Source: an uncultured bacterium (GTDB lineage: Bacteria; Bacillota_I; Bacilli_A; RF39; UBA660). Taken from it: a DNA stretch of 64,000 nucleotides. The translations under genes were made by a program, and so were the position numbers. Below, in pieces: positions 3,910-59,544 of the stretch (positions within the stretch are counted from its first letter, which is position 1; every line of letters begins with the position of its first letter). The notes under the pieces are model-generated. The model saw only the letters and a list, made by a program, of their open reading frames with translations. It searched no databases and was not told the DNA's origin. Location of the stretch: contig CASEYV010000001.1 in NCBI GenBank assembly GCA_949292245.1, positions 52,433 to 116,432 of the forward strand, read 5' to 3'.

Positions 3910-3987
3910 TGGCATTCCCAGAGGGATTCGAACCCCCACTCTTTTCGTTCGTAGCGAAATGCTTTAGTCCAATTAAGCTATGGGAAC
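3910..3987 (-). tRNA. tRNA-Arg (anticodon ACG), CCA encoded
   Basis: The reverse complement folds as a cloverleaf. Acceptor stem is GTTCCCA/TGGGAAT, D-stem GCTT/AAGC with a GG loop, anticodon stem TTTCG/CGAAA around loop CTACGAA (U33, A37). T-arm is GGGGG TTCGAAT CCCTC, followed by discriminator G and CCA. Confidence 0.85.
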
Positions 3988-4640: not shown

Positions 4641-5372
4641 TTATAAAACTTCAATATAACAATCAACTAATTCTTCATCTTTGCAGAATGCACCTTCGAA
4701 ACCATCATCGCCTTCTGTTAAATCATATTTGTATGTTAAAACTTCGCCATCAAATGTTTCAACTACATTTCTTACGATTTTTTTAGCATATTTAGTTTCA
4801 GTTCCAGTGATTTTAGTAACTTTAATATAACCTGTTCCAGCAACAGTAGCTTCAGTATTGTCAACTAACATAACAACACCTTGTCTATTTTCATCAGCAA
4901 CAGCAGCAACTAAATATTTGTTATAACCAACTTGTTTAATGATTTTAGCATCTTCTAATGCACCACCACCTAATGTATATTCTGTCCAATATACAACTAA
5001 TGTATATGATTTCCAATTAGCTGAATCAGTTGCAAATGCTTCACTAGAAGTATGTTGTTTTGTACATTCATATTGTTTACCAGATTCAGTTACTTTATCA
5101 CCAATTTGATATTCATGTGTAGCTTGCCAAGCAGCAGGAGCAGCTTCTTTTGCTAAGAAAGTTGATTGGTTATTTGCAGTTTTGCAGATATAATTTTTTC
5201 CACCTTGTGCTACTTTATCACCAACATTATAGTCAGTATTTTTTACCCAAGCAGCAGGAGCATATTCTTGTTCTAAAAATGCATGAATTTTTACTTTTTC
5301 AAAATTTTCTGTTTCTGCATCGAATCTTTTTTCGGCATTAAAAAATCCAAAACCAGCTAAAGGTCTTCCCAT
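4641..5372 (-). CDS. protein with two chitin-binding type-3 / CBM5_12-like repeats
   Basis: Two repeats, AAPAAWVKNTDYNVGDKVAQGGKNYICKTANNQS and AAPAAWQATHEYQIGDKVTESGKQYECTKQHTS, match the W..Y..GD.V...G..Y.C carbohydrate-binding signature. Confidence 0.5.
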   Translation of the reverse strand: MGRPLAGFGFFNAEKRFDAETENFEKVKIHAFLEQEYAPAAWVKNTDYNVGDKVAQGGKNYICKTANNQSTFLAKEAAPAAWQATHEYQIGDKVTESGKQYECTKQHTSSEAFATDSANWKSYTLVVYWTEYTLGGGALEDAKIIKQVGYNKYLVAAVADENRQGVVMLVDNTEATVAGTGYIKVTKITGTETKYAKKIVRNVVETFDGEVLTYKYDLTEGDDGFEGAFCKDEELVDCYIEVL

Positions 5373-5403
5373 TAAATTCTCCTTAAATAAATTATACAGA
5401 TAA

Positions 5404-5441: not shown

Positions 5442-6227
5442 TTAACTATTTTTAATTCTATCAATAGCATATTCACATTGATTTTCAGATATTTCACTAC
5501 CATAGCAATTTAAATTTAATTGTTTACAAGCAACACCTGTTGTTCCACTTCCCATAAATGGGTCATAAACTATTGAATTTTCAGAAGCATATATATTTAA
5601 TAATTTAGAGCAAAGCTCGCTAGAATAAGTTGCTTTATTTAATTTGCAAGGTCCGTCATTATTTGGGGCTTCAATAAAATTATAAATATTTTTATAAAAT
5701 GTTTGTCCAGTTTTTCCAATTTGTGAAATAGGTTTATTACAATTAAATGTTTTATATTCATTTTTACGACAAAACACAAACACATCTTCAACAATTCTTG
5801 TTAATTTATTTTTACTTGCATTATTTGGTAATGCTGTTCTTTTTTTCCATATGATTCTATCAGCTGTTACAAAATTAGTATTCCTAATAATATCAGCTAT
5901 TGTTAACCAAACTAATCCAATGCCTTCTTTATTTACAGAGCAATCAGAACCATATGAAACATTCCATAAAATTACACCGTTTGTTGACAATACATTATCA
6001 AATTCATTAAATAATTTTACACACCAATCACAATATTCTTGTTGTGTCATATTATCAATATGAATATCATACTTTCCTTCATAATTTTCACGACTTCTAT
6101 CGGTATTAGAAGGACGACCTGTATTATATGGTGGTGAAGTTAAAATAATATCTACTTTAACATTATCTTTTTTAAAATTTTCAATAGTGTCAAAACAATT
6201 TTCATTAAATATTTTTATTTCCGACAT
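5442..6227 (-). CDS. DNA methyltransferase, beta-class amino-MTase (SPPY motif; N4-cytosine or N6-adenine)
   Basis: N-terminal catalytic motif ILTSPPYN and C-terminal AdoMet motif DPFMGSGTTGVA. The order (motif IV before motif I) is beta-class. Confidence 0.8.
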   Translation of the reverse strand: MSEIKIFNENCFDTIENFKKDNVKVDIILTSPPYNTGRPSNTDRSRENYEGKYDIHIDNMTQQEYCDWCVKLFNEFDNVLSTNGVILWNVSYGSDCSVNKEGIGLVWLTIADIIRNTNFVTADRIIWKKRTALPNNASKNKLTRIVEDVFVFCRKNEYKTFNCNKPISQIGKTGQTFYKNIYNFIEAPNNDGPCKLNKATYSSELCSKLLNIYASENSIVYDPFMGSGTTGVACKQLNLNCYGSEISENQCEYAIDRIKNS

Positions 6228-6924
6228 TTTCTACCTCTTTTAATAATCTTTCAACAGCCATATTAAAATATGTTTCATTTTGTTCAATACCAATAAATTT
6301 TCTATTTGTTTTTATGCAAGCTACACCTGTTGTTCCACTTCCCATAAATGGGTCAAGAACAATATCATTTTCATCTGAACCAATAGGAATCATATTTTCA
6401 ATAGGTTCTAATGGTTTTAATGCTGGATGATTCCATTCTTTATTACCACCTATATTCCAATGATAATCTGTTTTTTTCTGATGATATGTTCCAGTTAATG
6501 TTCTGCCTTTCCAAAGATGAACACAATAATCTTTATCCTGATATTTTCCTCTAACATTAGGCAACGCATTATTTCTGTATAAGCATATATCTTGCCAATT
6601 CCATTTATTTTCTTTTGCCATAATTAAGTAATCAATAAATTGTTTTTTAGAACACCATATTTGATAATTTATAGCTTTACATACTCTTTTAAATTCAGTA
6701 AATAATAAATCGATATTAAAACCATCTGATATATTAGCTTGAATTAATTTATCATATGATTTTCTAGCTTTCTTTTCCATTATTTCACCCATATTATCAT
6801 CACTGTGAATAATATAAGGTGGGTCAGTATGAATTAATGTTACTGAATTATCTTCTATTTCTTTAATTACTTCTTCACAATTACCATGATACAATACGCA
6901 ATTTTCAATTATTACTTTTTTCAT
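6205..6924 (-). CDS. DNA N6-adenine methyltransferase, beta-class (DPPY)
   Basis: HTDPPYII near the N-terminus and DPFMGSGTTGVA near the C-terminus. Confidence 0.8.
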   Translation of the reverse strand: MKKVIIENCVLYHGNCEEVIKEIEDNSVTLIHTDPPYIIHSDDNMGEIMEKKARKSYDKLIQANISDGFNIDLLFTEFKRVCKAINYQIWCSKKQFIDYLIMAKENKWNWQDICLYRNNALPNVRGKYQDKDYCVHLWKGRTLTGTYHQKKTDYHWNIGGNKEWNHPALKPLEPIENMIPIGSDENDIVLDPFMGSGTTGVACIKTNRKFIGIEQNETYFNMAVERLLKEVENVGNKNI

Positions 6925-28876: not shown

Positions 28877-30493
28877 ATGGTGAAAAAAGGTAATACTATT
28901 AGATTTGGTAATAAAATATTTGTTATCGAAAATTTCGATTCTGATAATTTTTTATTAAAAGATAAAGAAACAAATATCATAAATTGGGTCAGTAAAAAAG
29001 AAGTAAAAGAAAATTTAGAACCAATAAATTTTTCTTCATCTATATTATTAGAATCAAATTGTCGTAAATCCTCATTTAATAATAATTATATCACAATCAA
29101 TTTATATGAAAATAATAATAGTTCTACATTTGAAATAATTGACGGTAAAAATATATATACTAAAACATATGATTATAATAAAAATCGTGCTATATATGAA
29201 TTTAATAAATTTTTTAAATATACCAATGAATTAACACCATTTAGATTAAAAAAATATGGTTTTTTGTTAAAAGAATCTGAAAAAGAACCTAAATTTAATG
29301 ATGCTTTTTGGAAATGGTTTGGTAATAGTGTATATAAAAACAGTAGAGGTAATCCTTTAATTGCTTATCATAATTCTCCAAATAAATTTAATGAATTTGA
29401 TATTAATAAAGTTGGTTCTCGTGATTTTGGATTTTATGGTTATGGTATTTATTTTTCAACACATAAAAGTATAGCTAGTCAATATGGAAAAAATCATTAT
29501 GCTGTTTATTTAAAAATGGAAAATCCATTTATGTTTGACCGTGAACATTATAAATATTCTATCACTGAAGAAGCATATGCTATTGTTAAAAAATATGAAG
29601 AATACAATTTATTAACAGAAGATGAATTAAATATAGTTCATGAATTAGAAAATATTTTTAATAATACAAAAATTCAAGAAGAAAAAACAACAGTTATTGA
29701 AAATGGACGAACATATCCAACAACAGTTTATCATTTACAATATAAAGATAAAACATATTCAACAGACCCACATATGGTATTAGATGAAAAAGATGCTATG
29801 ACTCAATTTATATATAATGATTTTGGTAATTTATTAAAATCATTAAAACAAATATATAATGTTTGTATGAGACAACGTAATAAACAATTTGCTCAAATGT
29901 TACAAAAAAATGGTTATGATAGTATTTGGGCTGGAACAGAAATAGTAGTATTTAATCCAAAGCAAATTAAATCTGTTAAAAATGTTGGAACATGGAATCC
30001 TGATTCAAATAATATATATGAATCAATGAATGTTATAGAAACAAAAGAATCTCCAATATATATTACAAATAATATGTATGATATTTTAAAATTACAGAAA
30101 AAAATGACATCATTAAGAGTTCTTATTGATGAACAAAAGAAAATATATATGATTGGTAATGCTTTATATCATATTCATGGAGAACTTTTTGATGAAGCTA
30201 TTGAAGCAGGATATTATAATTTTAATAACGAAAGAGAAAAAGATATATATTGGGAAAATCTTCCAGCTATTATAATTGATACAGATGATTTTTTAAAACA
30301 AGAAAGAAAAGATGATTATTTTGATGGAATACTTCGTTGTAATGGTTTTGTTGTTTATTATAGAACTAATAATTATACAGAAAGCGATTTTACTAAAACA
30401 AAACTTTATAATTTATTAGTATCAAAATATAATGGTAAGCAAGAAATAAATGAAAATAAATTATCTATTGGGGATATAGTAAAGAGCAAATAG
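28877..30493 (+). CDS. protein with a PARP-like (H-Y-E class) ADP-ribosyltransferase signature
   Basis: Residues 163-205 are IAYHNSPNKFNEFDINKVGSRDFGFYGYGIYFSTHKSIASQY. The PARP catalytic signature is LLWHGSRTTNF......[20 protein letters not shown]. They share H-x-S, the N-F pair, G-x-GIYF-[AS] and the KS-A-Y tail. Confidence 0.45.
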   Translation: MVKKGNTIRFGNKIFVIENFDSDNFLLKDKETNIINWVSKKEVKENLEPINFSSSILLESNCRKSSFNNNYITINLYENNNSSTFEIIDGKNIYTKTYDYNKNRAIYEFNKFFKYTNELTPFRLKKYGFLLKESEKEPKFNDAFWKWFGNSVYKNSRGNPLIAYHNSPNKFNEFDINKVGSRDFGFYGYGIYFSTHKSIASQYGKNHYAVYLKMENPFMFDREHYKYSITEEAYAIVKKYEEYNLLTEDELNIVHELENIFNNTKIQEEKTTVIENGRTYPTTVYHLQYKDKTYSTDPHMVLDEKDAMTQFIYNDFGNLLKSLKQIYNVCMRQRNKQFAQMLQKNGYDSIWAGTEIVVFNPKQIKSVKNVGTWNPDSNNIYESMNVIETKESPIYITNNMYDILKLQKKMTSLRVLIDEQKKIYMIGNALYHIHGELFDEAIEAGYYNFNNEREKDIYWENLPAIIIDTDDFLKQERKDDYFDGILRCNGFVVYYRTNNYTESDFTKTKLYNLLVSKYNGKQEINENKLSIGDIVKSK

Positions 30494-30588: not shown

Positions 30589-31116
30589 TTATTCAATATT
30601 TATAAGTTTAATTTCTTCTTCTTTTTCTTTTTTATCTTTAAATTCAATAGTCAAAAGACCATTTTCCAATGAAGATTTGACAAATTCTAATGAATCACAC
30701 ATCTTCCATGAATTTTCAAATTCTCTCATTGCGATACCTTTATAGCAATATACTCTTCCTTCACCATCACAAAAAACTCCACTTCCTTCCATAGTAAAAT
30801 CGTCTTTGCCCCTTTTTCCTTTTGAACCTTTAACAGTCAAGACATTAGTTTTTGTATTATATGTTATTTTTAACATATCTTTGGTATATCCAGCACAAGC
30901 TAACTGAATAAAAGTATGAACTTCTTTATGACAATCTGCTTCTTTACCATTGTCATTACAAACATTTACTTCTTCTGTAAAAATACTATATGGTGGGAAA
31001 GTTGTTTCTTTAAAAGAATTACTAAATTTATCTAAATCATCAAAAAAATCTGAAAATCCAATAAGATTACGTTTATTATTAAAGACATCAAAAAATGTCA
31101 TCAAATTATTTGCCAT
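30589..31116 (-). CDS. small heat-shock protein, Hsp20/alpha-crystallin family
   Basis: Alpha-crystallin-like core (ITYNTKTNVLTVKG...REFENSWKMCDSLEFVKSSLENGLLTIEF) and a C-terminal I-x-I motif (LINIE). Confidence 0.6.
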   Translation of the reverse strand: MANNLMTFFDVFNNKRNLIGFSDFFDDLDKFSNSFKETTFPPYSIFTEEVNVCNDNGKEADCHKEVHTFIQLACAGYTKDMLKITYNTKTNVLTVKGSKGKRGKDDFTMEGSGVFCDGEGRVYCYKGIAMREFENSWKMCDSLEFVKSSLENGLLTIEFKDKKEKEEEIKLINIE

Positions 31117-31202: not shown

Positions 31203-32456
31203 TCAATTTTCAATATTATTTGACAAATATTTTATCATTTCTTCGTGATAAATTTCACCAAATTTTTTTCCAGAAAATTTAGAAAGTCTTTCTTGAACTT
31301 TTTCTGGTAAATCTTTTAAAGTTATGCCGTGCATAACATCAAAAATTTTTAACATTCTTTGTTCAATTTTTTGTCTTTCTATTTTTTCTTCATCTGAAAC
31401 TGTTAATGCTCTACCATAACAATCACATCTAGTTACTTCAATGAAATCAATCAATCTTTGACGATTTTTGAAATTTAATGAAATAGCTTTAATCATATCG
31501 TATTGCTTTCTTAGCTTCATTTGATGAAATCTATGAGCATTCATATGATAACGACAAGATATTAAAGCAAAATCACGATATTCATTTGGAATTTTAACTC
31601 TATCACATAATTTTTCAATTACTGATAATCCATTAAATTCATGACCATGATGAGCTGGTAAAATATCTTGTGGAGTTAATGCTTTACCTAAATCATGACA
31701 CAATACAGCAAATTTAACCATTGGAGATAATTGATTCCAATCAGCAACTCGCAAACACAACATTGTATGTTCAAAAGAATTACCTTCTGGATGATATTCC
31801 AATTTTTCTGGAGTATCAATTAAAGCATACAATTCTGGAAGAACAATTTTTAATGCTCCACTTTCTTGGAGATTTCTAATGAATTTTTCTGTTATACAAT
31901 TAGATTGTAATGCTTTTTCAATTTCTTTCCATACTCTTTCTTCTGTTAAGTGTTCAATCATTTTATTTTCAACCATCGTTTGCAATAAATTCATAGTATT
32001 TCTTTCAATATTAAAATCTAATTGAGCTGAAAAACGGCAAGCTCTTAATAATCTTAATGGGTCTTCGATAAAAGTTTCATCACGAACAGCTCGTAATAAT
32101 TTATTTTTTAAATCATCTTGACCATTAAAATAATCAATTACATTTCCATTTTCATCTAATGCCATAGCATTAATTGTAAAATCTCTACGAACTAAATCAT
32201 CTTCCAAAGAAACATCAGATGAAAATTCAAATTCAAAATCAGTATGTTTATCACCAATTTTTCTTTCTTTTCTTGCTAAAGCATATTCTTCGTTTGTTTC
32301 TGGGTGTAAAAACACAGGAAAATCTTTACCTACTTGGTGAAAACCAAGAGATTCCATTTCGGAAATAGAAGAACCAACAACAACATAATCATTATCATGT
32401 GATGTTCTATCTAATAATTTATCTCTAACTGCCCCACCAACTAAATAAGTTTTCAT
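31203..32456 (-). CDS. cca: CCA-adding tRNA nucleotidyltransferase (class II, with HD domain)
   Basis: N-terminal LVGGAVRDKLL, the RRDFTINA-type head domain and an HD motif (CHDLGKALTP, HHGHE). Confidence 0.85.
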   Translation of the reverse strand: MKTYLVGGAVRDKLLDRTSHDNDYVVVGSSISEMESLGFHQVGKDFPVFLHPETNEEYALARKERKIGDKHTDFEFEFSSDVSLEDDLVRRDFTINAMALDENGNVIDYFNGQDDLKNKLLRAVRDETFIEDPLRLLRACRFSAQLDFNIERNTMNLLQTMVENKMIEHLTEERVWKEIEKALQSNCITEKFIRNLQESGALKIVLPELYALIDTPEKLEYHPEGNSFEHTMLCLRVADWNQLSPMVKFAVLCHDLGKALTPQDILPAHHGHEFNGLSVIEKLCDRVKIPNEYRDFALISCRYHMNAHRFHQMKLRKQYDMIKAISLNFKNRQRLIDFIEVTRCDCYGRALTVSDEEKIERQKIEQRMLKIFDVMHGITLKDLPEKVQERLSKFSGKKFGEIYHEEMIKYLSNNIEN

Positions 32457-32772: not shown

Positions 32773-33924
32773 TCAAGCATTTTTAATAAAATCTTCAACC
32801 ATATCGGCTAATTTATCATAAGTTAAATCGCTAATATATTGCATAGCACAATCGTATTTGTTATCGATAGCTTTAAACATATAATTAGAGAACTTACAAT
32901 TTTTTAATATGTATTGAGCTTTATCTTTTCTGCTTTCTAATGAATTGATGTAATCAATATTAGAGTTATATTCATCATCGATTGCGTTAATCAATGAGTG
33001 ATATCCATCTAACATTCTTTGAATATTTAATTTATATTCAGAGAAATAATTTAAGAATTCATCAATTTCATTATTGACAATTAATATCATTGCTTTTTTA
33101 GGAGTTAAAATTCCTTGTCCTTTCAAATGATGCACTGCAACATAAGATGGAGATTTAACTTTAACTCTATTGAAATTTTTATCTACAACGACATATCCTT
33201 CTTCTGTATATGGTAATTCATTTGCTGCCAAAATACATTCATTTAATGATTTAAAACCATATTGTTTTGGAGTTTTAAATATTTTTGCCAAAGGATGGTC
33301 ATAAATTAAAATTTCTTCTAATGATTTGTTATTTCTAACACCAATCAAGCATAAATTAATTCCTTCATAAGGAATAACAACTTTATTATATGGTGAAATT
33401 AATTCAAACATATAAGTATAGTTTTCTTCGAATAAATCTAACCATTTATCTTTTGAAATTGATTTTAATGGTTCAGCATTTTCAATTAATTCCTTATAAT
33501 TAGAATATTTAAAATCTAAATTTTGAGCAACTTCGGCTTTTGAAGCATCGATAGTTCCATTAGTAGAAATCAACAAATCATTACCCAATCTAACTATTTT
33601 AATTAAAGAACCGTCAATTTTTTGAGTAATTTTAGCAGATTTCCAATCTATTTCTGGACAATATGATTCACCATAATTTCCAAATTTGTAGAATGGAACA
33701 GATACTGGTTCTAATGAATCAATATCAATAATCAATCCACGGCATTCTCTAACGATTTCATTATTAAAATCAGAAGAAATTTGGTTATATTTTAATAATG
33801 CTAAATTTCTACCATACATATTATCTTTAGATACAGATATACAATATGGAGATTGAGCTAAATCATCTTCCCAATTTTTATGTGATTTAATATATTCAAT
33901 AACTTTTAACATTTCAATCTCCAT
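32773..33924 (-). CDS. rnlA: RNA ligase 1 (T4 RnlA-like)
   Basis: Motif I TQKIDGSL (KxDG). ECRGLIIDIDS aligns with T4 ECRGIMFEMDG. EGYVVVDKNFNRVKVKSPSYVAVH aligns with [24 protein letters not shown]. Confidence 0.85.
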   Translation of the reverse strand: MEIEMLKVIEYIKSHKNWEDDLAQSPYCISVSKDNMYGRNLALLKYNQISSDFNNEIVRECRGLIIDIDSLEPVSVPFYKFGNYGESYCPEIDWKSAKITQKIDGSLIKIVRLGNDLLISTNGTIDASKAEVAQNLDFKYSNYKELIENAEPLKSISKDKWLDLFEENYTYMFELISPYNKVVIPYEGINLCLIGVRNNKSLEEILIYDHPLAKIFKTPKQYGFKSLNECILAANELPYTEEGYVVVDKNFNRVKVKSPSYVAVHHLKGQGILTPKKAMILIVNNEIDEFLNYFSEYKLNIQRMLDGYHSLINAIDDEYNSNIDYINSLESRKDKAQYILKNCKFSNYMFKAIDNKYDCAMQYISDLTYDKLADMVEDFIKNA

Positions 33925-34250: not shown

Positions 34251-34847
34251 TTATTCTCCCAATATTTTTATTTGCTGATATATAGTTTCTTCAGCTTTTA
34301 AAATCATTTGCTTGTAAATTTTAAACATTATTGAAGAATCATCTTGAAACAATTCTTTCGCTCTCTTAATAAATTCTTCTTTTTCACCAAGATACTTTTT
34401 AGCAAATGAAGAATCTCTTTTAACAATATCATGACAGTTGTCAATAATATCAGCCAATTTAACAATTATAGAATCAATACTACCTTTTAAAGTATGTTCC
34501 ATATCTATCATTTTTCTAATTTTGCGATTTCCATCTTCTGGTTTAGAAATGTTTGTTAAATATTCAACATTTTTACTATAATATTCTCCAAATAAACTTT
34601 CTATTTCTTCCAATGTAGCATCAGTATCTTCAACAGTATCATGTAGATAAGCCAATTCTTCTAAACGATAGATTATATCCAAATCCATAGGTTGAATATC
34701 AGAGCAAATTTTACTAATTATTTTAGCAACACTAATAGGGTGAGTAATATATGATTCACCTGTATATTTTCTTGTTTGACCTTTATGTTTTTCAGTCGCA
34801 TAATCTAATATTTTATCGTGTTTAAAATCTCTATATTCACTACTCAT
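34251..34847 (-). CDS. small alarmone hydrolase, RelA/SpoT-type HD domain (Mesh1/SAH-like)
   Basis: KHKGQTRKYTGESYITHPISVAKII aligns with SpoT HRKGQFRKSGEPYITHPLAVAEIL. AYLHDTVEDTDATLEEIESLFGE aligns with ALLHDVVEDTDVTLEEIEERFGP. IIVKLADIIDNCHDI aligns with ILIKLADRLHNMRTL. Confidence 0.7.
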   Translation of the reverse strand: MSSEYRDFKHDKILDYATEKHKGQTRKYTGESYITHPISVAKIISKICSDIQPMDLDIIYRLEELAYLHDTVEDTDATLEEIESLFGEYYSKNVEYLTNISKPEDGNRKIRKMIDMEHTLKGSIDSIIVKLADIIDNCHDIVKRDSSFAKKYLGEKEEFIKRAKELFQDDSSIMFKIYKQMILKAEETIYQQIKILGE

Positions 34848-35679: not shown

Positions 35680-36177
35680 TTATCTATGTAATTTAATATT
35701 ATATTGTTCACAATCTTTTTTAAACATATCAAATGTTTCATCTTCACCAACTAAAAATAACCAAGAACAAGTATGTTCATTTCTGGTGCAATTAATCATA
35801 CCATAATTATCCATAGTTGCATTATCGCATACTGTAATATCATATTTTTGTTTAGTTTTTGTATCCATTAAATCCAATAATTCTTTTTGAGCTTTAAATG
35901 GATATGTGCTATCCATAATATGACCTTGACACCATTCATCTGTATATTTAAACAAAAGATTCCAAATATCTTTATTTGAACCTTCTAAAACTACTGTCGT
36001 TCCAAAACCTTCACCTTCATTTATCCAATTTTGAAAGTATTGATTATCATTTTTATTATTGGAAGACATAAATTCTTTTACAAATTGAGCTGAAGCATGT
36101 GATGCTTGTGCCATGGCTTTTCCAGCATTCAAAGATGGTAAATCATTTCTCATAAAAATATATAAAACTTGTTTCAT
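35680..36177 (-). CDS. peptidyl-tRNA hydrolase, PTH2 family
   Basis: VLYIFMRNDLPSLNAGKAMAQASHAS matches the PTH2 core [25 protein letters not shown]. Confidence 0.6.
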   Translation of the reverse strand: MKQVLYIFMRNDLPSLNAGKAMAQASHASAQFVKEFMSSNNKNDNQYFQNWINEGEGFGTTVVLEGSNKDIWNLLFKYTDEWCQGHIMDSTYPFKAQKELLDLMDTKTKQKYDITVCDNATMDNYGMINCTRNEHTCSWLFLVGEDETFDMFKKDCEQYNIKLHR

Positions 36178-36231
36178 ATCAATATCTCCTATATTGATGA
36201 TAATAACAAATATATATTTTTAAGTCAATAG

Positions 36232-36732
36232 TTATTCGTATGTTTTTTTAAATTTGTGTTTAATTTTTTTAAATACTTTTTCTTGCTCTATTTCTAATCC
36301 AAGTTTTCTATATTCACCAGCTAAATCATCTGCAATATTATTATAGTATGATAATTTGGTTCCATCGTGAATATGACCTTTTATTTGCATAAATTTTACT
36401 TTTTTTCTTGTAAAATCTAAAAAATCATATATATAATTTAGGCAAGATGATTCAAATTCATCTTGCCCTTTATTTCTTTGTGAAATTTTTCTTAACGCAG
36501 TTGCAGAATCAGAAATAATTGTAATTGTTTTATCATCCATTCTATCTACAATTTTATTATTACAAATATATTGAATAGCCATAGCAATTGCAGCAATTTC
36601 CGCTACATTATTATCACGACATTTATTTGTATATGTTCCAAAAGTATGTTCTCTACCTTTATATAAAAGAACCGCACCAAATCCACTCATACGAGGTTTT
36701 AATGAGTGACTTCCATCAGTAAATATAATCAT
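36232..36732 (-). CDS. rnhA: ribonuclease HI
   Basis: IIFTDGSHS...GFGAVL...TNNVAEIAAIAMAI fits the RNase H1 DEDD fold order (TDGS...G.G.V...TNN.AE..A...AL). Confidence 0.7.
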   Translation of the reverse strand: MIIFTDGSHSLKPRMSGFGAVLLYKGREHTFGTYTNKCRDNNVAEIAAIAMAIQYICNNKIVDRMDDKTITIISDSATALRKISQRNKGQDEFESSCLNYIYDFLDFTRKKVKFMQIKGHIHDGTKLSYYNNIADDLAGEYRKLGLEIEQEKVFKKIKHKFKKTYE

Positions 36733-36763: not shown

Positions 36764-37207
36764 TTATTTGTCTAATAATCCTAAAAATTTTTGGATATTT
36801 TTAATTTCATCCGATGTCATTGATTGATATTTTAAATCAAACTCATCATCTGATAAATTTTTATAAAAATTTCTAATTAAATTATAATTTTTATCATTTT
36901 TATTTTTAGATTGAGCTATCCATTGATGTTTAAATGATTTATTTAATCCACAAGTGCATAACAATTTAAATTGTAAATCTTTATATTTTGATAATTCCCA
37001 ATAATGAGTATTAACATTATTATTAACTAATTTTGTTAATTGTATATGTTGTTTTTCTTGTCCATATATTGCCGACATCCAACGACATAATGTATAAGGT
37101 TGAATTTCTTTTTGTTGTTCTGACGATAAAGATTCAAAATATTGATAATTTTTATTATCAATATTTTTTAATACATCAAAAATATCATTTTTATAAGTTT
37201 TAGCCAT
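36764..37207 (-). CDS. hypothetical protein
   Basis: 147-aa ORF. Confidence 0.35.
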   Translation of the reverse strand: MAKTYKNDIFDVLKNIDNKNYQYFESLSSEQQKEIQPYTLCRWMSAIYGQEKQHIQLTKLVNNNVNTHYWELSKYKDLQFKLLCTCGLNKSFKHQWIAQSKNKNDKNYNLIRNFYKNLSDDEFDLKYQSMTSDEIKNIQKFLGLLDK

Positions 37208-37671
37208 TAATTATCTCCATATTTATATAATACACATTTTATTGGAGATTTTGCAAAAATATCTTCAATAATTTTATATACAATATTCCAATCACCACCA
37301 GCTAATCCACAACCTATTTTATAAGGTATAGCCACCGATAAATTATTATATTCGGCATATTCTTTTACTTGATTTAATGATAATTTTAATGATTCATAAT
37401 CCGTTTGTAAACCAGTTCCATATGATAATTGACCAAAACAATTCATAACATATTTTGAATTATCAACATTTACAATTTGAGTATAACCCATTAAACTATT
37501 TGGAAATTTTTTATATAAATCACATAATATTTTATATTTGTCAAAAATTACAGGATATTTTTTTCTTAATTGTAGAGCTAAACCAGCTCCCATTACTCCT
37601 AAACAATTTGTTTGATGGACAATTATATTTTCCGAACAATTTAATATATTACCATTTATAATATCAATCAT
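37207..37671 (-). CDS. macro domain protein (ADP-ribose binding / processing)
   Basis: NIIVHQTNCLGVMGAGLALQL aligns with YmdB VIVNAANPSLMGGGGVDGAI. LSVAIPYKIGCGLAGGDW aligns with TSVAFPAISTGVYGYP. Confidence 0.75.
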   Translation of the reverse strand: MIDIINGNILNCSENIIVHQTNCLGVMGAGLALQLRKKYPVIFDKYKILCDLYKKFPNSLMGYTQIVNVDNSKYVMNCFGQLSYGTGLQTDYESLKLSLNQVKEYAEYNNLSVAIPYKIGCGLAGGDWNIVYKIIEDIFAKSPIKCVLYKYGDN

Positions 37672-45119: not shown

Positions 45120-47354
45120 TTATTCCCCAAAATAAATTTTATTATCTTTTATTTTTAATAATATTTTTCCACCATTTTTATATTTTCCAAAAACAATATC
45201 TTTTGCTATCACATTTTTAATTTCATTAGTTATTATATGTTTCATAGGTCTAGCACCGTTATTGGAATTTTCAACCTTTTTAACGATATAATTTATTATA
45301 TCATCATTATATTCAAAATCAATCATTTTTTTTGACAAAATAGATTTTAATTCGTCCAAAAATTTTATGCAAATTGTTTTTAATACATCTGATGACAAAT
45401 TATTAAAAGTAATAGTTGAATCAATTCTATTTCTAAATTCAGGTAAAAATCTATCTTCATAATCTTGGTCAGATGGTGTATAATCATCATTACCAAAACC
45501 AATTCGTATTTTATGAGAATTATACGAACCGACATTTGATGTCATAATTAAATAAACATGCTCAAATGAAACTGATTTACCAGATGATGAAGTCAATTTA
45601 CCATTATCCATTACTTGTAATAAAACATTATGTATTTTAGAATTAGCTTTTTCAATTTCATCTAATAATAAAATACAAGATGGATGTTCATCAATAGCAT
45701 TAATTAATAAACCATTACCTGATTTACCATCTCCGAAACCTTTATATCCAGGAGGAGCACCTAGTAATTTAGACACACTATGTTCTTCCATATATTCAGA
45801 CATATCAAATCTAACCAATGGAATATTCAAAATTTTTGACAATACTTTACATATTTCTGTTTTACCGACACCAGAAGAACCTTTAAACATCAAAGATATA
45901 GCCGTTTTATTTGTTTCTCTTAATCCAGATTTAGAAATAATAACAGCTTCACTGACTTTTTTTACAGCTTCATCTTGTCCAATAATTTCTTTTTTTATAG
46001 TATTTTCTAAATTTTTATAAATTTCTTCTTCTGATAAAGAAATATTATTTAAAGGTATGCCTAATAATATAGACAATACTTTATAAATCATATCTTCTGA
46101 TATTTCTTTTTCATTGTGATATGTAGCATAAGCTCCGACTGTATCTAAAATATCAATCGCTTTTTCAGGAAAAAACTTATTATAAAAATATCTATTACAA
46201 TAATCCATTATTAAATCAATTATTTTTTCTGAAAAAGTAACATTAAAATTATTTTCATATAATGATTTAATATTCATTATAATATTTTTAGTTTCATCAA
46301 ATGATGGTTCTTTAACAGTAAATTTAAAAAAGTTTTTTACAAAATTGTCATCTTTTTCAATAAACCTACGATAATCTTCATTAGTTGTAATGCCAATAAT
46401 TTTAATTTTACCATCACAAAGCATTGGCTTAAATAATGATGATAAATCATTTTGACTTGAATAATCACCATTTCCACACATAAAATGTATGTCATCAATA
46501 ATTAAAACTACATTTTCTTTTTTATTTAAAATATTATGTAATGTTTTTACTCTATTTTCAATTTCACCTTTAACCATAATATTTGCAGTAAAAGATAAAT
46601 TATCTAATAATAGAAATTCTTTATCAGTATATTTTTCACTGTAAATTTTTGCCAAGCCTTCTACTAACTTAGATTTACCAACACCATGATTACCAACAAG
46701 TATAATATTTGGTTTATCATGTCTTAATAAAATATATTGTAACAACTCTAATTCATCATCACGACCAATTAAAGGTTGCCATTCTTTCCCCTTTACTTTT
46801 TCAGTTAAATTAATTGTATATTGTGATAAAAATAATTGTTCTTTTTTATTTGAAGAACCATCTAATGTTTCATTTATAATTTCTGATACACGATTAGACA
46901 TATTAGATGAATAAGATTGATAAATTTTTGTCAAAAATAATGGACTAACATTATTTGACAATAATATTTTTTGAGAAAAAGTTTCTTCCATAAACAAAAA
47001 AGATGCAATGACATTTGTTATAAATAAAACATCTTTATTTATAACAACATCTTCATTACATTTATGACATAGATTGCAATATCCTAAAAATACCAAAACA
47101 TGTGGAGAAATTTCTATATTATCGCTTGAACTTTCTATATGTTCCATTAAAGGATAATTAGAAATAAAATCTTCTAATTCTTTTGTAATTTTTTTATAAT
47201 CAATTTTATATTTTTTAAATAACTTTAAAAAATGTTCGTCTTTCATAACGACATATAAAACATGTTCCAAATGAACATATTTTGAACTATAATTTTGGGC
47301 CACTTTTTTTGATTCATTAATAAGTTCTTGTAATCTTTCAACAAAATCAATCAT
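45120..47354 (-). CDS. ClpA-like AAA+ unfoldase (Clp_N domain, two AAA modules, IGF ClpP-docking loop)
   Basis: D1 Walker A LVGNHGVGKS and D2 Walker A FKGSSGVGKTE. The sensor is GARPMKHII. KIRIGFGNDD...FRNRID aligns with the ClpA IGL loop RKSIGLIHQDN...FRNRLD. Confidence 0.8.
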   Translation of the reverse strand: MIDFVERLQELINESKKVAQNYSSKYVHLEHVLYVVMKDEHFLKLFKKYKIDYKKITKELEDFISNYPLMEHIESSSDNIEISPHVLVFLGYCNLCHKCNEDVVINKDVLFITNVIASFLFMEETFSQKILLSNNVSPLFLTKIYQSYSSNMSNRVSEIINETLDGSSNKKEQLFLSQYTINLTEKVKGKEWQPLIGRDDELELLQYILLRHDKPNIILVGNHGVGKSKLVEGLAKIYSEKYTDKEFLLLDNLSFTANIMVKGEIENRVKTLHNILNKKENVVLIIDDIHFMCGNGDYSSQNDLSSLFKPMLCDGKIKIIGITTNEDYRRFIEKDDNFVKNFFKFTVKEPSFDETKNIIMNIKSLYENNFNVTFSEKIIDLIMDYCNRYFYNKFFPEKAIDILDTVGAYATYHNEKEISEDMIYKVLSILLGIPLNNISLSEEEIYKNLENTIKKEIIGQDEAVKKVSEAVIISKSGLRETNKTAISLMFKGSSGVGKTEICKVLSKILNIPLVRFDMSEYMEEHSVSKLLGAPPGYKGFGDGKSGNGLLINAIDEHPSCILLLDEIEKANSKIHNVLLQVMDNGKLTSSSGKSVSFEHVYLIMTSNVGSYNSHKIRIGFGNDDYTPSDQDYEDRFLPEFRNRIDSTITFNNLSSDVLKTICIKFLDELKSILSKKMIDFEYNDDIINYIVKKVENSNNGARPMKHIITNEIKNVIAKDIVFGKYKNGGKILLKIKDNKIYFGE

Positions 47355-57714: not shown

Positions 57715-58920
57715 TTTCACCTCTTTCTATAAATTTTTTAATTATATCTTTAACTTTATCAAAATTTTCTTTAATATCTTTTTCCCAAACATATAAAACA
57801 TCATATCCCAAATGTTTATATTCCTTAAATTTTTGATAATCTTTATCCCACAATAATTTCGCTTTATCATTATAACCCCAAAATCTTATTAAATCATTTG
57901 ATTTGTAAATTTTTGGATTGGCGTGATAAATATCCCCATTAACTTCAATAATCTTATTGTTTATAACACAATCTGCATATTTAACTTTGTTATTACATAA
58001 TATTTTTTTATTGTTTATAACATCATATCCTTCACTAATTAAAAAATCAAGAACTTTCTTTTCAACTTTTGAAATTTTTCGTAATTGTGTTTTTCCTTTA
58101 TGATGAAATAATGAAATATGAGATTTAAATTTAATATCTTCTCTTTGAAAAATATTTGTTATCCCATAATCATCAAATAATTGTTGTTCCCATTTTTTAC
58201 GACTTTCAGTATTTTTACAAAAATTATGTTCATAACCAAAATTTTTTAAACAAGTTTCTTTATATCTTTGTTTTCTTTCAGCTTCATTGCAAGATTCTTT
58301 AATAGTTCTTGTATCAATATTAAAAAATTTCATTTTTTTAATAATTGCTTTTGTATTAATGCCTGTTTGTTCGCTTATCCATTTGGCAGAATGTCTATTA
58401 ACAATATATTCATTATATAAATATTCTTTTGTTAATATTTCATTTTTATATTTTTGATATTCATTACATTTTGCAAGATGTCCTTGCATAGAACCTTTAT
58501 GTCCATCTTTTTTTATTTCAACTTTCTTATGACAATATTTACAAATTTCGGTGTGCATCTTTTCTCCTTATTTTTAAAATATTTATCAGAAAAGATGCAC
58601 GATGTATCTTTTCAGTTATTATCAATTAATACAGTTTCTGTTCCATCTAAATCTTCAACTGCTCTATAAGCATTTAAGTTTTCACACCATACTAAATGAT
58701 TTCCTGTTAATTTAATAATTGAACCATCTTCTAACTCAATTAAATACCAATTATCAATATTTTCTTGTATAGATGTTCCTAAAACAGGACGATATTCAAT
58801 TTCTTTAGTATCTAAATTATAAGATTTTACCATATCATTTGTAATATCTTTTTCAACATATTCACCGATTTTTATTTTACCATATTTTAAAGAATCAATA
58901 ATAGTATTATAATCTGCACA
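57601..58920 (-). mobile_element. split mini-intein (IntN 58615-58920, IntC 57601-57714) flanking a free-standing homing-type endonuclease gene
   Basis: Canonical intein blocks A, B, F and G sit in two separate ORFs with an endonuclease ORF in a third frame between them. The insertion point is immediately after ligase motif I (KVHG|S). Confidence 0.7.
57677..58558 (-). CDS. free-standing endonuclease, Vsr-like/DUF559 (PD-(D/E)xK) with N-terminal zinc ribbon, inserted between the two intein halves
   Basis: Own RBS AAGGAG. CKYCHKKVEI....HLAKC is the zinc ribbon. C-terminal HLGYDVLYVWEKDI resembles the GYxVLRFWExE motif of Vsr/DUF559 endonucleases. Confidence 0.55.
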   Translation of the reverse strand: MHTEICKYCHKKVEIKKDGHKGSMQGHLAKCNEYQKYKNEILTKEYLYNEYIVNRHSAKWISEQTGINTKAIIKKMKFFNIDTRTIKESCNEAERKQRYKETCLKNFGYEHNFCKNTESRKKWEQQLFDDYGITNIFQREDIKFKSHISLFHHKGKTQLRKISKVEKKVLDFLISEGYDVINNKKILCNNKVKYADCVINNKIIEVNGDIYHANPKIYKSNDLIRFWGYNDKAKLLWDKDYQKFKEYKHLGYDVLYVWEKDIKENFDKVKDIIKKFIERGENEGFYNKEYKEN

Positions 58921-59544
58921 TCCATGAACTTTTTCAGTCGCTTCAAAAATTTCACCATCAATAAAAGCATCCATATATTTTTGAATTGGTTCTACATCAT
59001 ATGGAACAACAATTTCAGTTCCACCATTAAAGATTTCACCACCCATACTAGCAGGAATTGGTTGTTCATATTTTGTAATACCAAGAAAATCGGCAACATT
59101 TTCACCTTCGACAGCAGGTAGCCAACTTATATATGAAGTTTTTTCTGAAATAATAAATTTTTGGTCATCAGAATAACCCCATTGTTTAGCACAACCATGA
59201 CAACCCTCATCATATTCAGTTTCAGTCATAGCTGGATATAAAACACCTTCAGAAAAAATACCACGAAGTTTTAATGGTTTAACACGATTACCGTCTTTAC
59301 CAGCTAAAATACCTTTATTTTTTTCAAAATCCCAAAAATTCATTCTTTTAAGCAACCATTCAGGAAGAACAGCATTTTCAGGAATATATACTACCAAATC
59401 GCCAACATTATAACGGTCTGAACCATCTTCTAATTTATTGGAAATACAAGTATATCCACCAATTTTATACAATGTTAGTCTATCAGCATTTGGGTGATTT
59501 TCTTTTTCATCAATTTTAACTACTTTACATTCAAAATTTGCCAT
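58612..59544 (-). CDS. N-extein of an Rnl2/Rnl5-type RNA ligase (N-terminal HPNADRL domain plus motif I KVHG) fused to a split-intein N-fragment (about 102 aa)
   Basis: N-extein ..VVKIDEKENHPNADRLTLYKIGG...GDLVVYIP...EATEKVHG, then intein block A CADYNTIIDSLKYGKIKIGE and block B GSIIKLTGNHLVW, then stop. Confidence 0.8.
   Translation of the reverse strand: MANFECKVVKIDEKENHPNADRLTLYKIGGYTCISNKLEDGSDRYNVGDLVVYIPENAVLPEWLLKRMNFWDFEKNKGILAGKDGNRVKPLKLRGIFSEGVLYPAMTETEYDEGCHGCAKQWGYSDDQKFIISEKTSYISWLPAVEGENVADFLGITKYEQPIPASMGGEIFNGGTEIVVPYDVEPIQKYMDAFIDGEIFEATEKVHGCADYNTIIDSLKYGKIKIGEYVEKDITNDMVKSYNLDTKEIEYRPVLGTSIQENIDNWYLIELEDGSIIKLTGNHLVWCENLNAYRAVEDLDGTETVLIDNN

Follow-up and report, generated by a model that had tools for sequence, protein, structure and literature searches.

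A divergent PTH2-fold protein with an extended β-hairpin encoded by an AT-rich jumbo phage

PTH2-fold and Pth proteins of cells and phages

Phage tRNA-maintenance enzymes are increasingly viewed as a counter to tRNA-targeting immunity, as exerted by anticodon nucleases, toxSAS toxins and GNAT acetyltransferases. Archaeal and eukaryotic Pth2 (peptidyl-tRNA hydrolase II, which releases tRNAs still bound to incomplete peptides; PF01981; S. solfataricus 1XTY, human PTRH2/Bit1 1Q7S and M. jannaschii 2ZV3) share their fold, the order of their elements, the N-terminal motif and the Asp at the end of β3 with the protein analysed here, which is encoded within a 64,000-nucleotide stretch of DNA (the window). 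The archaeal and eukaryotic proteins have 113 to 120 residues, whereas the window protein has 165, with a 47-residue hairpin and without the GP and TGxLKLL motifs. Lys18 and Asp86 reportedly play roles in S. solfataricus Pth2, Asp86 as a catalytic residue, according to Fromant et al. in 2005. Bacterial Pth1 (PF01195) has the same presumed reaction (EC 3.1.1.29), but its fold, with catalytic His, Asp and Asn, is unrelated and it gives no sequence match to the window protein; Pth1 was shown to reverse the acetylation of aminoacyl-tRNA by GNAT toxins (PMC9241777).

A PTH2-type gene was noted in Klebsiella phage RaK2 in 2013 (PMC3622015), and for the canonical type of PTH2 in large phages, which PMC3622015 and PMC7824862 report, peptidyl-tRNA recycling has been proposed in connection with tRNA repair and ribosome rescue. 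RaK2 ORF188, Mycobacterium phage Myrna gp36, phiM12 gp370 and Atu_ph07 ASV44756 are likewise phage-encoded PTH2-fold proteins; they keep DAG(K/R)TEF...(A/I)GP...TGDLKLL, unlike the window protein, and can share a genome with members of the subfamily to which the latter belongs. Short members of this subfamily include phiM12 gp286, phiN3 A0A0F6WCM5 ('putative aminoacyl-tRNA hydrolase') and the proteins of Brevundimonas phage Kikimora, Erythrobacter phage L02 and Ruegeria phage RpAliso (PHROG 1866). They have the same signature as the window protein (LY-x-x-x-R-x-D-L-x-S-x-N-x-G-K, FGT, D-P-T-Y-P, T-C and L-H-P), but are 131 to 145 aa long with an 18-residue hairpin, as against the 45-47 class of the window protein, and their identity to it is at most 41% (N-terminal 56% only). 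Foldseek placed the DUF2000 protein Atu0240 (PDB 2GAX), which has a PTH2-like fold, tenth with E 3e-3; its structural similarity is remote and much weaker than that of canonical Pth2 (TM 0.46-0.55, 9% identity). A PTH2 gene in a phage, as the first-pass annotation of this DNA described it, is what we found, but such genes in jumbo phages were already published in 2013 (PMC3622015) and 2021 (PMC7824862); within its divergent phage subfamily, the window gene falls in the class with the long hairpin.

The gene, its neighbours and the predicted fold

In the ORF list, a 165-aa ORF on the minus strand spans exactly 35680..36177 of the window from ATG to stop. The core motif quoted in the first-pass annotation is present in this ORF, whose N-terminal sequence is MKQVLYIFMRNDLPSLNAGKAMAQASHAS, the same as that motif, and whose residues 4-29 read VLYIFMRNDLPSLNAGKAMAQASHAS. 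The gene and its leader were delimited as follows.

35680..36177, minus strand: PTH2-fold protein of a divergent, apparently phage-restricted subfamily, 165 aa (ORF, Pfam, hhalign, AlphaFold, Foldseek, conservation)
36178..36231, minus strand: intergenic leader of 54 nt containing a ribosome-binding site (AGGAG) and a promoter-like sequence, TTGACT-17-TATTAT (sequence inspection, promoter scan)

The Pfam PTH2 match, the homologues and the occurrence of the same protein, 100% identical, on 7 metagenome contigs (the longest of 240.6 kb) rule out a chance ORF and confirmed that 35680..36177 is a genuine gene, and a scan with the family profile showed it to be the sole PTH2-like ORF of the window. 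An AGGAG Shine-Dalgarno box lies 8 nt 5′ of the ATG, and the sigma-70-like TTGACT-17-TATTAT, with TG before it, occupies 36228-36200 in the gap after the upstream RNase H gene; since the DNA has 25% GC and the promoter scan found 50 sites versus 38.7 expected in shuffles, this match is weak evidence. The lone plus-strand ORF that overlaps the gene, at its 3′ end, has 46 aa and a TTG start, and nothing was found in its support. No Rfam family overlaps the gene, and the only Rfam match in the window is a tRNA-Arg at 3913-3987, its single tRNA gene.

Virion and tail proteins are encoded in the window, which has 25% GC, and so is a Clp/Lon-like ATPase; among cultured phages, its nearest relatives come from the jumbo phages Phosso, E. 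coli phage vB_EcoM_JNE01 and PA5oct (33-35% identity). The source of the window is an AT-rich jumbo phage of at least 240 kb. The annotated genes around the PTH2-like gene, and a more distant ligase gene, are the following.

28877-30493, opposite strand to the PTH2-like gene: ART-PolyVal ADP-ribosyltransferase
30589-31116, minus strand: Hsp20
31203..32456, minus strand: CCA-adding enzyme with PolyA_pol head, RNA-binding and HD domains (PF01743 E 6.9e-23, PF12627, PF01966)
32773..33924, minus strand: Rnl1-type RNA ligase (Pfam RNA_lig_T4_1 E 9.4e-15)
34251..34847, minus strand: small alarmone hydrolase (SAH), single-domain RelA/SpoT-type (Pfam HD_4 E 2.2e-10)
36232..36732, minus strand: RNase H, immediately upstream of the PTH2-like gene (Pfam RNase_H E 3.6e-17)
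37207..37671, minus strand: Macro domain, Poa1p/TARG1-like (Pfam Macro E 4.2e-8; PDB matches BT1257, ADP-ribose 1''-phosphate phosphatase and OARD1)
58612-59544: second RNA ligase

The CCA enzyme, ligases and SAH that had been proposed as neighbours were thus borne out by Pfam and PDB sequence matches, the best PDB matches of the SAH being HDDC3/Mesh1, Rel hydrolase domains and a 'Small Alarmone Hydrolase' (6z3o). The CCA-adding enzyme, the Rnl1 ligase and the SAH all lie within 4.5 kb of the PTH2-like gene on the same strand, and relatives with PTH2-like proteins of 46-68% identity, which are syntenic genomes of one lineage, preserve this arrangement. Adjacency to the RNase H gene is kept in the related phages L006, L011 and L098-L100.

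Assignment to PTH2 rather than to bacterial Pth, as first suggested from the motif, was upheld by Pfam, by profile-profile comparison and by the predicted fold, and no profile search pointed to a different fold, since Pfam, hhalign and Foldseek all gave PTH2. The Pfam PTH2 (PF01981) match, with a score of 36.9 bits and E 4.6e-9 (gathering cutoff 23), was confined to the N-terminal half of the protein, residues 4-69, corresponding to profile positions 2-59 of 115. Bacterial Pth1 (PF01195) was absent from the Pfam results even at E<=10, and this identity was therefore rejected. Among PHROGs, the protein matched phrog_1866 ('unknown function') with E 8.8e-18. When the profile of an alignment of 42 homologues (A1) was compared by hhalign with an alignment of five solved Pth2 sequences checked against PDB chains (A2), the two matched over residues 5-92 with 96.4% probability, pairing window and S. 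solfataricus residues as R10/R9, D12/D11, K20/K18, Q24/Q22, H27/H25 and D89/D86; G19/G17, A23/A21 and A28/A26 are further aligned N-terminal pairs. The N-terminal motif R-x-D-(L/I)...G-K-x-x-A-Q-x-x-H-A is thus present, including K20 as the equivalent of S. solfataricus K18, and so is the Asp closing β3, D89, which aligns with D86.

An AlphaFold2 model built on A1 had a mean pLDDT of 92.9 and a pTM of 0.85, with a four-stranded sheet and the element order of canonical PTH2 (b1-a1-a2-b2-a3-b3-b4-a4). In a Foldseek search of the PDB, places 1-12 were all taken by PTH2-fold proteins (3erj, 1xty, 2zv3, 1rlk, 1q7s/Bit1, 1wn2 and the DUF2000 protein 2gax among them), and E exceeded 0.03 beyond these; the best structural match was 1xty, with TM 0.81 normalised by target length, which ranked second by E-value. 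The best matches among viral structures in BFVD were A0A6J5KSU7 (TM 0.75) and phiN3 A0A0F6WCM5 (Foldseek E 7.2e-9), the best viral matches already bearing the name peptidyl-tRNA hydrolase. The model confirmed the PTH2 fold as the predicted fold of the entire window protein.

A divergent subfamily with a variable hairpin

The region after D89 differs from that of canonical Pth2, and one feature of the model is specific to the subfamily.

35770..35910, minus strand: elongated β3-β4 hairpin, subfamily-specific, with two short helices, residues 90-136 (model secondary structure, motif spacing)

The canonical D-A-G-x-T-(Q/E)...P-G-(T/S)-x-T...(I/V)-G-P is absent, its place being taken by D-S-T-Y-P (from D89), 47 residues and T136-C137, and neither PG nor GP occurs in the loop/strand region of the window protein. 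The secondary structure of the model (E83-97, H98-103, H106-111, E127-144) places T136-C137 on a long return strand, and the hairpin stands in for the canonical AGxTQxxPG loop directly after D89. The distance from this Asp to the TC pair is 47 residues, compared with 12 in S. solfataricus Pth2. Among 126 sequences having both motifs, out of about 200 family sequences, the distance falls into classes of 18, 38-41 and 45-47 residues, the window protein being in the longest, and these several classes make the hairpin a variable feature of the family.

The departure extends to the C terminus and the surface. The canonical C-terminal D-x-(I/V)-T-G-x-(L/Y)-K-L-(L) is absent, the window protein ending in ...YNIKLHR with only L163 matching canonical L119, and where canonical Pth2 has the invariant lysines K16, K56 and K60, the alignment shows A/P, T/V and S/G/E. 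Of the 29 positions that do not vary among the five solved Pth2, 11 to 12 are retained when mapped by hand, the range depending on the alignment of V59. The NCBIfam Pth2 equivalog models NF003314 and TIGR00283 were both missed widely (28.3 bits versus a cutoff of 126, and 22.1 versus 82). The calculated pI of the window protein is 5.17, and in the family, where 68% of the proteins lie below 6, the median is 5.46, as against about 9 in five of six canonical Pth2; an acidic pI is unusual for a general tRNA binder and so counts against an ordinary peptidyl-tRNA hydrolase. Judged from its sequence, the window protein clearly differs from canonical Pth2 and belongs to a divergent branch. Of the first-pass name 'peptidyl-tRNA hydrolase', the PTH2 fold therefore stood, but an ordinary Pth was not established, given the missed equivalog cutoffs, the lost C-terminal motifs, the inserted hairpin, the acidic character and the occurrence of the subfamily next to canonical Pth2 in several phage genomes.

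Conservation was counted over 196 representatives that share less than 50% identity. The near-invariant residues were R10, D12, S15, G19, K20, A23, Q24, H27, A28, W51, F58-G59-T60, L64 and D89, followed from the hairpin on by Y92, P93, E99, R132, E134, T136, C137 and L163. H27 was found in all 196 and D89 in 195, while position 20 was K in 170 and R in 24 (K/R in 194 of 195 aligned), a pattern that fits an enzyme; R10, D12, G19, K20, A23, Q24, H27 and A28 were each kept in at least 87%. The subfamily signature (S15, N17, F-G-T 58-60, D-x-T-Y-P 89-93, T-C 136-137 and L163) is complete in the window protein, which the family profile scores at 206 bits; phage canonical Pth2 reach only about 29-30 bits with the A1 family profile.

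The search yielded 51 homologues at E<=1e-3 in the 90% database, and the A1 profile found 1,225 clusters at E<=1e-3 and 1,020 at E<=1e-10 in a 50%-identity library of 1.84 billion representatives. Members reside on phage contigs of 100-390 kb, the long contigs examined being phage-like, and 80 IMG/VR loci carry the subfamily. Those of cultured phages have 131-145 aa, come from phages of Caulobacter, Brevundimonas, Sinorhizobium, Rhizobium, Agrobacterium, Erythrobacter and Ruegeria, and are frequently annotated already in GenBank or UniProt as 'aminoacyl-' or 'peptidyl-tRNA hydrolase'. No relative was matched in 185,579 bacterial and archaeal species genomes by the single peptide pattern N[APV]GKAMAQ, a scan that is only suggestive, and this subfamily of about 1,000 clusters is apparently restricted to phages. 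A fusion of one member with a PP-binding (ACP-like) domain occurs on two independent contigs, and in tandem-domain members the motif is lost in the first copy. No measured activity for any member was found in the literature.

Coexistence with canonical Pth2, genomic context and candidate functions

Using the canonical phage Pth2 of contig L008 (123 aa) as a tblastn query, we obtained 41 phage records, and the match lists of this query and of the window protein had in common Sinorhizobium phages phiM12, phiM7, phiM19, phiN3 and Phosso and Agrobacterium phage Atu_ph07. Translation identified phiM12 gp370 and Atu_ph07 ASV44756 as the canonical copies (...DAG(R/K)TEF...(A/I)GP...TGDLKLL) and phiM12 gp286 and Atu_ph07 ASV44721 as the subfamily copies, and metagenome contigs L008, L023 and L026 carry one of each within 10 kb. 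That several phages keep both copies suggests that subfamily and canonical Pth2 are not redundant, a statement that we did not find in the literature searched, and counts against simple functional identity. Phage genes annotated as PTH2 thus comprise two clearly different groups; that of the window gene is changed in the region facing the substrate and occurs alongside the canonical one, a split that makes a difference in substrate testable. Were biochemistry to reveal a distinct substrate, the tRNA-repair or counter-defence toolkit would gain a new activity and a widespread annotation would be corrected; were the protein simply a Pth, the finding would be an ordinary one.

Genomic context varies among members. 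In phages unrelated to that of the window, the subfamily gene lies within tRNA arrays in RpAliso, L028, L081 and L065, follows a DNA ligase gene in L009 and L010, and adjoins Macro domain and NAD-salvage genes in phiM12. In RHph_I1_18 it stands two genes before the RlaP RNA-repair nucleotidyltransferase and a calcineurin-like phosphoesterase, with a homing-endonuclease gene between. Overall, tRNA genes occur within 10 kb in only 8 of 60 IMG/VR loci, six of those eight being arrays of 5-31 genes. When the two proteins on either side of the gene were annotated with Pfam in 38 diverse loci (150 proteins), none of the families was present in more than 4 loci and none for tRNA or RNA repair was dominant, and a general operonic link to tRNA repair was rejected on this ground; the linkage to CCA enzyme, ligase and SAH is specific to the lineage of the window phage, and there is no conserved operon across the subfamily. 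A conserved pair of PTH2-like and RNase H genes across lineages was likewise unsupported, since the 'ribonuclease' neighbour in RpAliso is an RNaseH_like protein (PF04308) without detectable similarity to the window RNase H. In some lineages, the context supports, short of proof, a tRNA-related role.

The reading that we favour, to which we would give slightly better than an even chance, is that of a soluble PTH2-fold esterase that frees tRNA of N-blocked aminoacyl or peptidyl groups, its hairpin altering recognition. The protein would be expressed from a minus-strand block of auxiliary genes of the AT-rich jumbo phage and would hydrolyse the ester bond between the N-blocked aminoacyl or peptidyl group and the ribose of A76, leaving tRNA with a free CCA-OH. 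Lys20 and Asp89 would take the roles of Lys18 and Asp86 of S. solfataricus Pth2, while the long β-hairpin in place of the DAGxT...PG loop and the loss of surface lysines probably shift substrate recognition or choice. Its partners would be the CCA-adding enzyme, restoring the 3′ end, and the two RNA ligases, resealing broken anticodon loops; the SAH may also have tRNA as its target, as the pyrophosphate added to the CCA end by toxSAS toxins is taken off by some SAHs (bioRxiv 10.1101/2021.04.30.441581). Together, these enzymes would maintain a tRNA pool fit for charging while dead-end tRNA species arise through host defences or translation stress. Esterase activity, a tRNA-linked substrate and a counter-defence role are what we infer for this protein, and the scenario is essentially that published for jumbo-phage PTH2, proposed to clear peptidyl-tRNA in tRNA repair (PMC7824862, section 3.4.9). 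A role of the window protein against GNAT toxins is speculation, though chemically reasonable because bacterial Pth reverses the acetylation of aminoacyl-tRNA by TacT (PMC9241777).

The remodelled β3-β4 loop, the lost canonical lysines, the acidic pI and the coexistence with canonical Pth2 in the six cultured phages and three contigs named above would also suit a neofunctionalised PTH2-fold esterase, with the catalytic core kept and a substrate other than bulk peptidyl-tRNA, a possibility that we take seriously but consider on the whole doubtful. Candidate substrates are one specific acylated tRNA or, outside tRNA, a ribose or carrier ester, for instance acyl- or ADP-ribose-linked carboxylates or an acyl or aminoacyl carrier protein. 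The new invariants (S15, FGT58-60, YP92-93, E99, R132, E134 and C137) agree with such a change, as do the rare PP-binding (ACP-like) fusion on two independent contigs and the Macro, ADP-ribosyltransferase or NAD-salvage genes near the gene in the window, phiM12, Erythrobacter phage L02 and L008; this last association is, however, sporadic, consisting of single occurrences among the 150 neighbours. The full N-terminal Pth2 motif and the Asp are retained, some members sit in tRNA arrays or adjoin RNA-repair genes, and there is no direct support for an alternative substrate, all of which argue against this change. A specialised esterase with its own substrate, such as a particular aminoacyl-tRNA modified by a toxin or, outside tRNA, an acyl-ribose or carrier ester, would account for the keeping of both paralogues by phiM12, Atu_ph07 and Phosso, and we put it forward tentatively for the subfamily.

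Returning to the tRNA-freeing esterase, two further readings compete with it. The protein might boost translation capacity irrespective of host defence, by more peptidyl-tRNA recycling during heavy late protein synthesis from an extremely AT-rich genome, in which case the tRNA-repair genes would lie near it because they share a region of auxiliary genes, without forming a functional module. Neighbours that vary outside the lineage, the spread of canonical Pth2 in large phages of many hosts, the single tRNA gene of the window and the lack of a known defence-related trigger agree with this, but the host already has an essential Pth1 (PMC4929431, PMC9241777), and it is suggestive that CCA-adding, ligase, SAH and RlaP genes repeatedly lie near the gene in separate lineages; we judge this reading improbable. 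We think it very improbable that the protein is a catalytically dead PTH2-fold binder, which might sequester a host factor or tRNA: the strong sequence divergence, the acidic surface, the change of K20 to Arg in 24 of 195 aligned representatives and the motif-less first copy of tandem-domain members would be compatible with it, but R10, D12, G19, Q24, H27, D89, Y92 and T136 are near-invariant, in an active-site-like manner, across about 200 representatives less than 50% identical.

Paired PTH2-fold genes

phiM12 carries two PTH2-fold genes (at 4980-5402 of phage record L002 and 2872-3342 of L096), as does Atu_ph07 (L014 4001-4420 and L097 2875-3342), and two apiece were likewise found in Phosso and in contigs L008, L023, and L026. 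In each of these pairs, one gene is canonical, with the motifs DAGxTEF...GP...LKLL, while the other belongs to the divergent subfamily. The presence of both types in the same phage suggested that the two copies are not redundant.

Domain variants and nearby tRNA genes

Among individual PTH2-like proteins, P0159 has a PP-binding domain (acyl/peptidyl-carrier-like, with a DSL motif) fused N-terminally to the PTH2-like domain; this fusion was found on two independent metagenome contigs, both short and of low coverage (L101 100-846 and L102 674-1420). The PTH2-like domain is duplicated in tandem in P0124 and P0182 (340-345 aa), the R-x-D...G-K motif being lost from copy 1 and intact in copy 2. On IMG/VR contig L081 (731-11525), a PTH2-like gene is surrounded by 30 tRNA genes and a tmRNA. 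Two other IMG/VR contigs carry an amber-suppressor-like tRNA(CTA), labeled 'Pyl' by ARAGORN, close to the PTH2-like gene (L044 7980-8056 and L064 4465-4540).

Phage lineage of the window

45120-47354, minus strand: Clp/Lon-like ATPase, 744 aa (phrog_4871, E 3.7e-194)
5442-6227 and 6205-6924, minus strand: pair of neighboring N6/N4 DNA methyltransferase genes that overlap

The closest cultured relatives of the Clp/Lon-like ATPase, at 33-35% identity, belong to jumbo phages Phosso, vB_EcoM_JNE01, and PA5oct. This comparison places the window in a jumbo-myovirus lineage without a close cultured member.

Genes around the tRNA-enzyme block

28877-30493, plus strand: ART-PolyVal ADP-ribosyltransferase
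30589-31116, minus strand: Hsp20 small heat-shock protein
37207-37671, minus strand: Poa1p/TARG1-like Macro domain
58612-59544, minus strand: second RNA ligase (phrog_968)

Hsp20 directly adjoins the CCA-adding enzyme (31203-32456, minus strand), a pairing conserved in relatives L004, L006, and L011. The phrog_968 ligase is additional to the Rnl1-type ligase (32773-33924), and no polynucleotide kinase/phosphatase was found among the scanned ORFs, which cover part of the window. The divergent PTH2-like gene of the window has a RelA/SpoT-type hydrolase in its vicinity, whereas in phiM12 it is a RelA/SpoT synthetase-like gene (gp365, L096 1205-1957) that lies four genes upstream of the canonical PTH2. 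The ADP-ribosyltransferase and Macro domain genes flank the tRNA-enzyme block; in L004 the former occurs in a 1207-aa version with DUF5662, and in phiM12 a Poa1p-like Macro domain lies one gene away from the PTH2-like gene.
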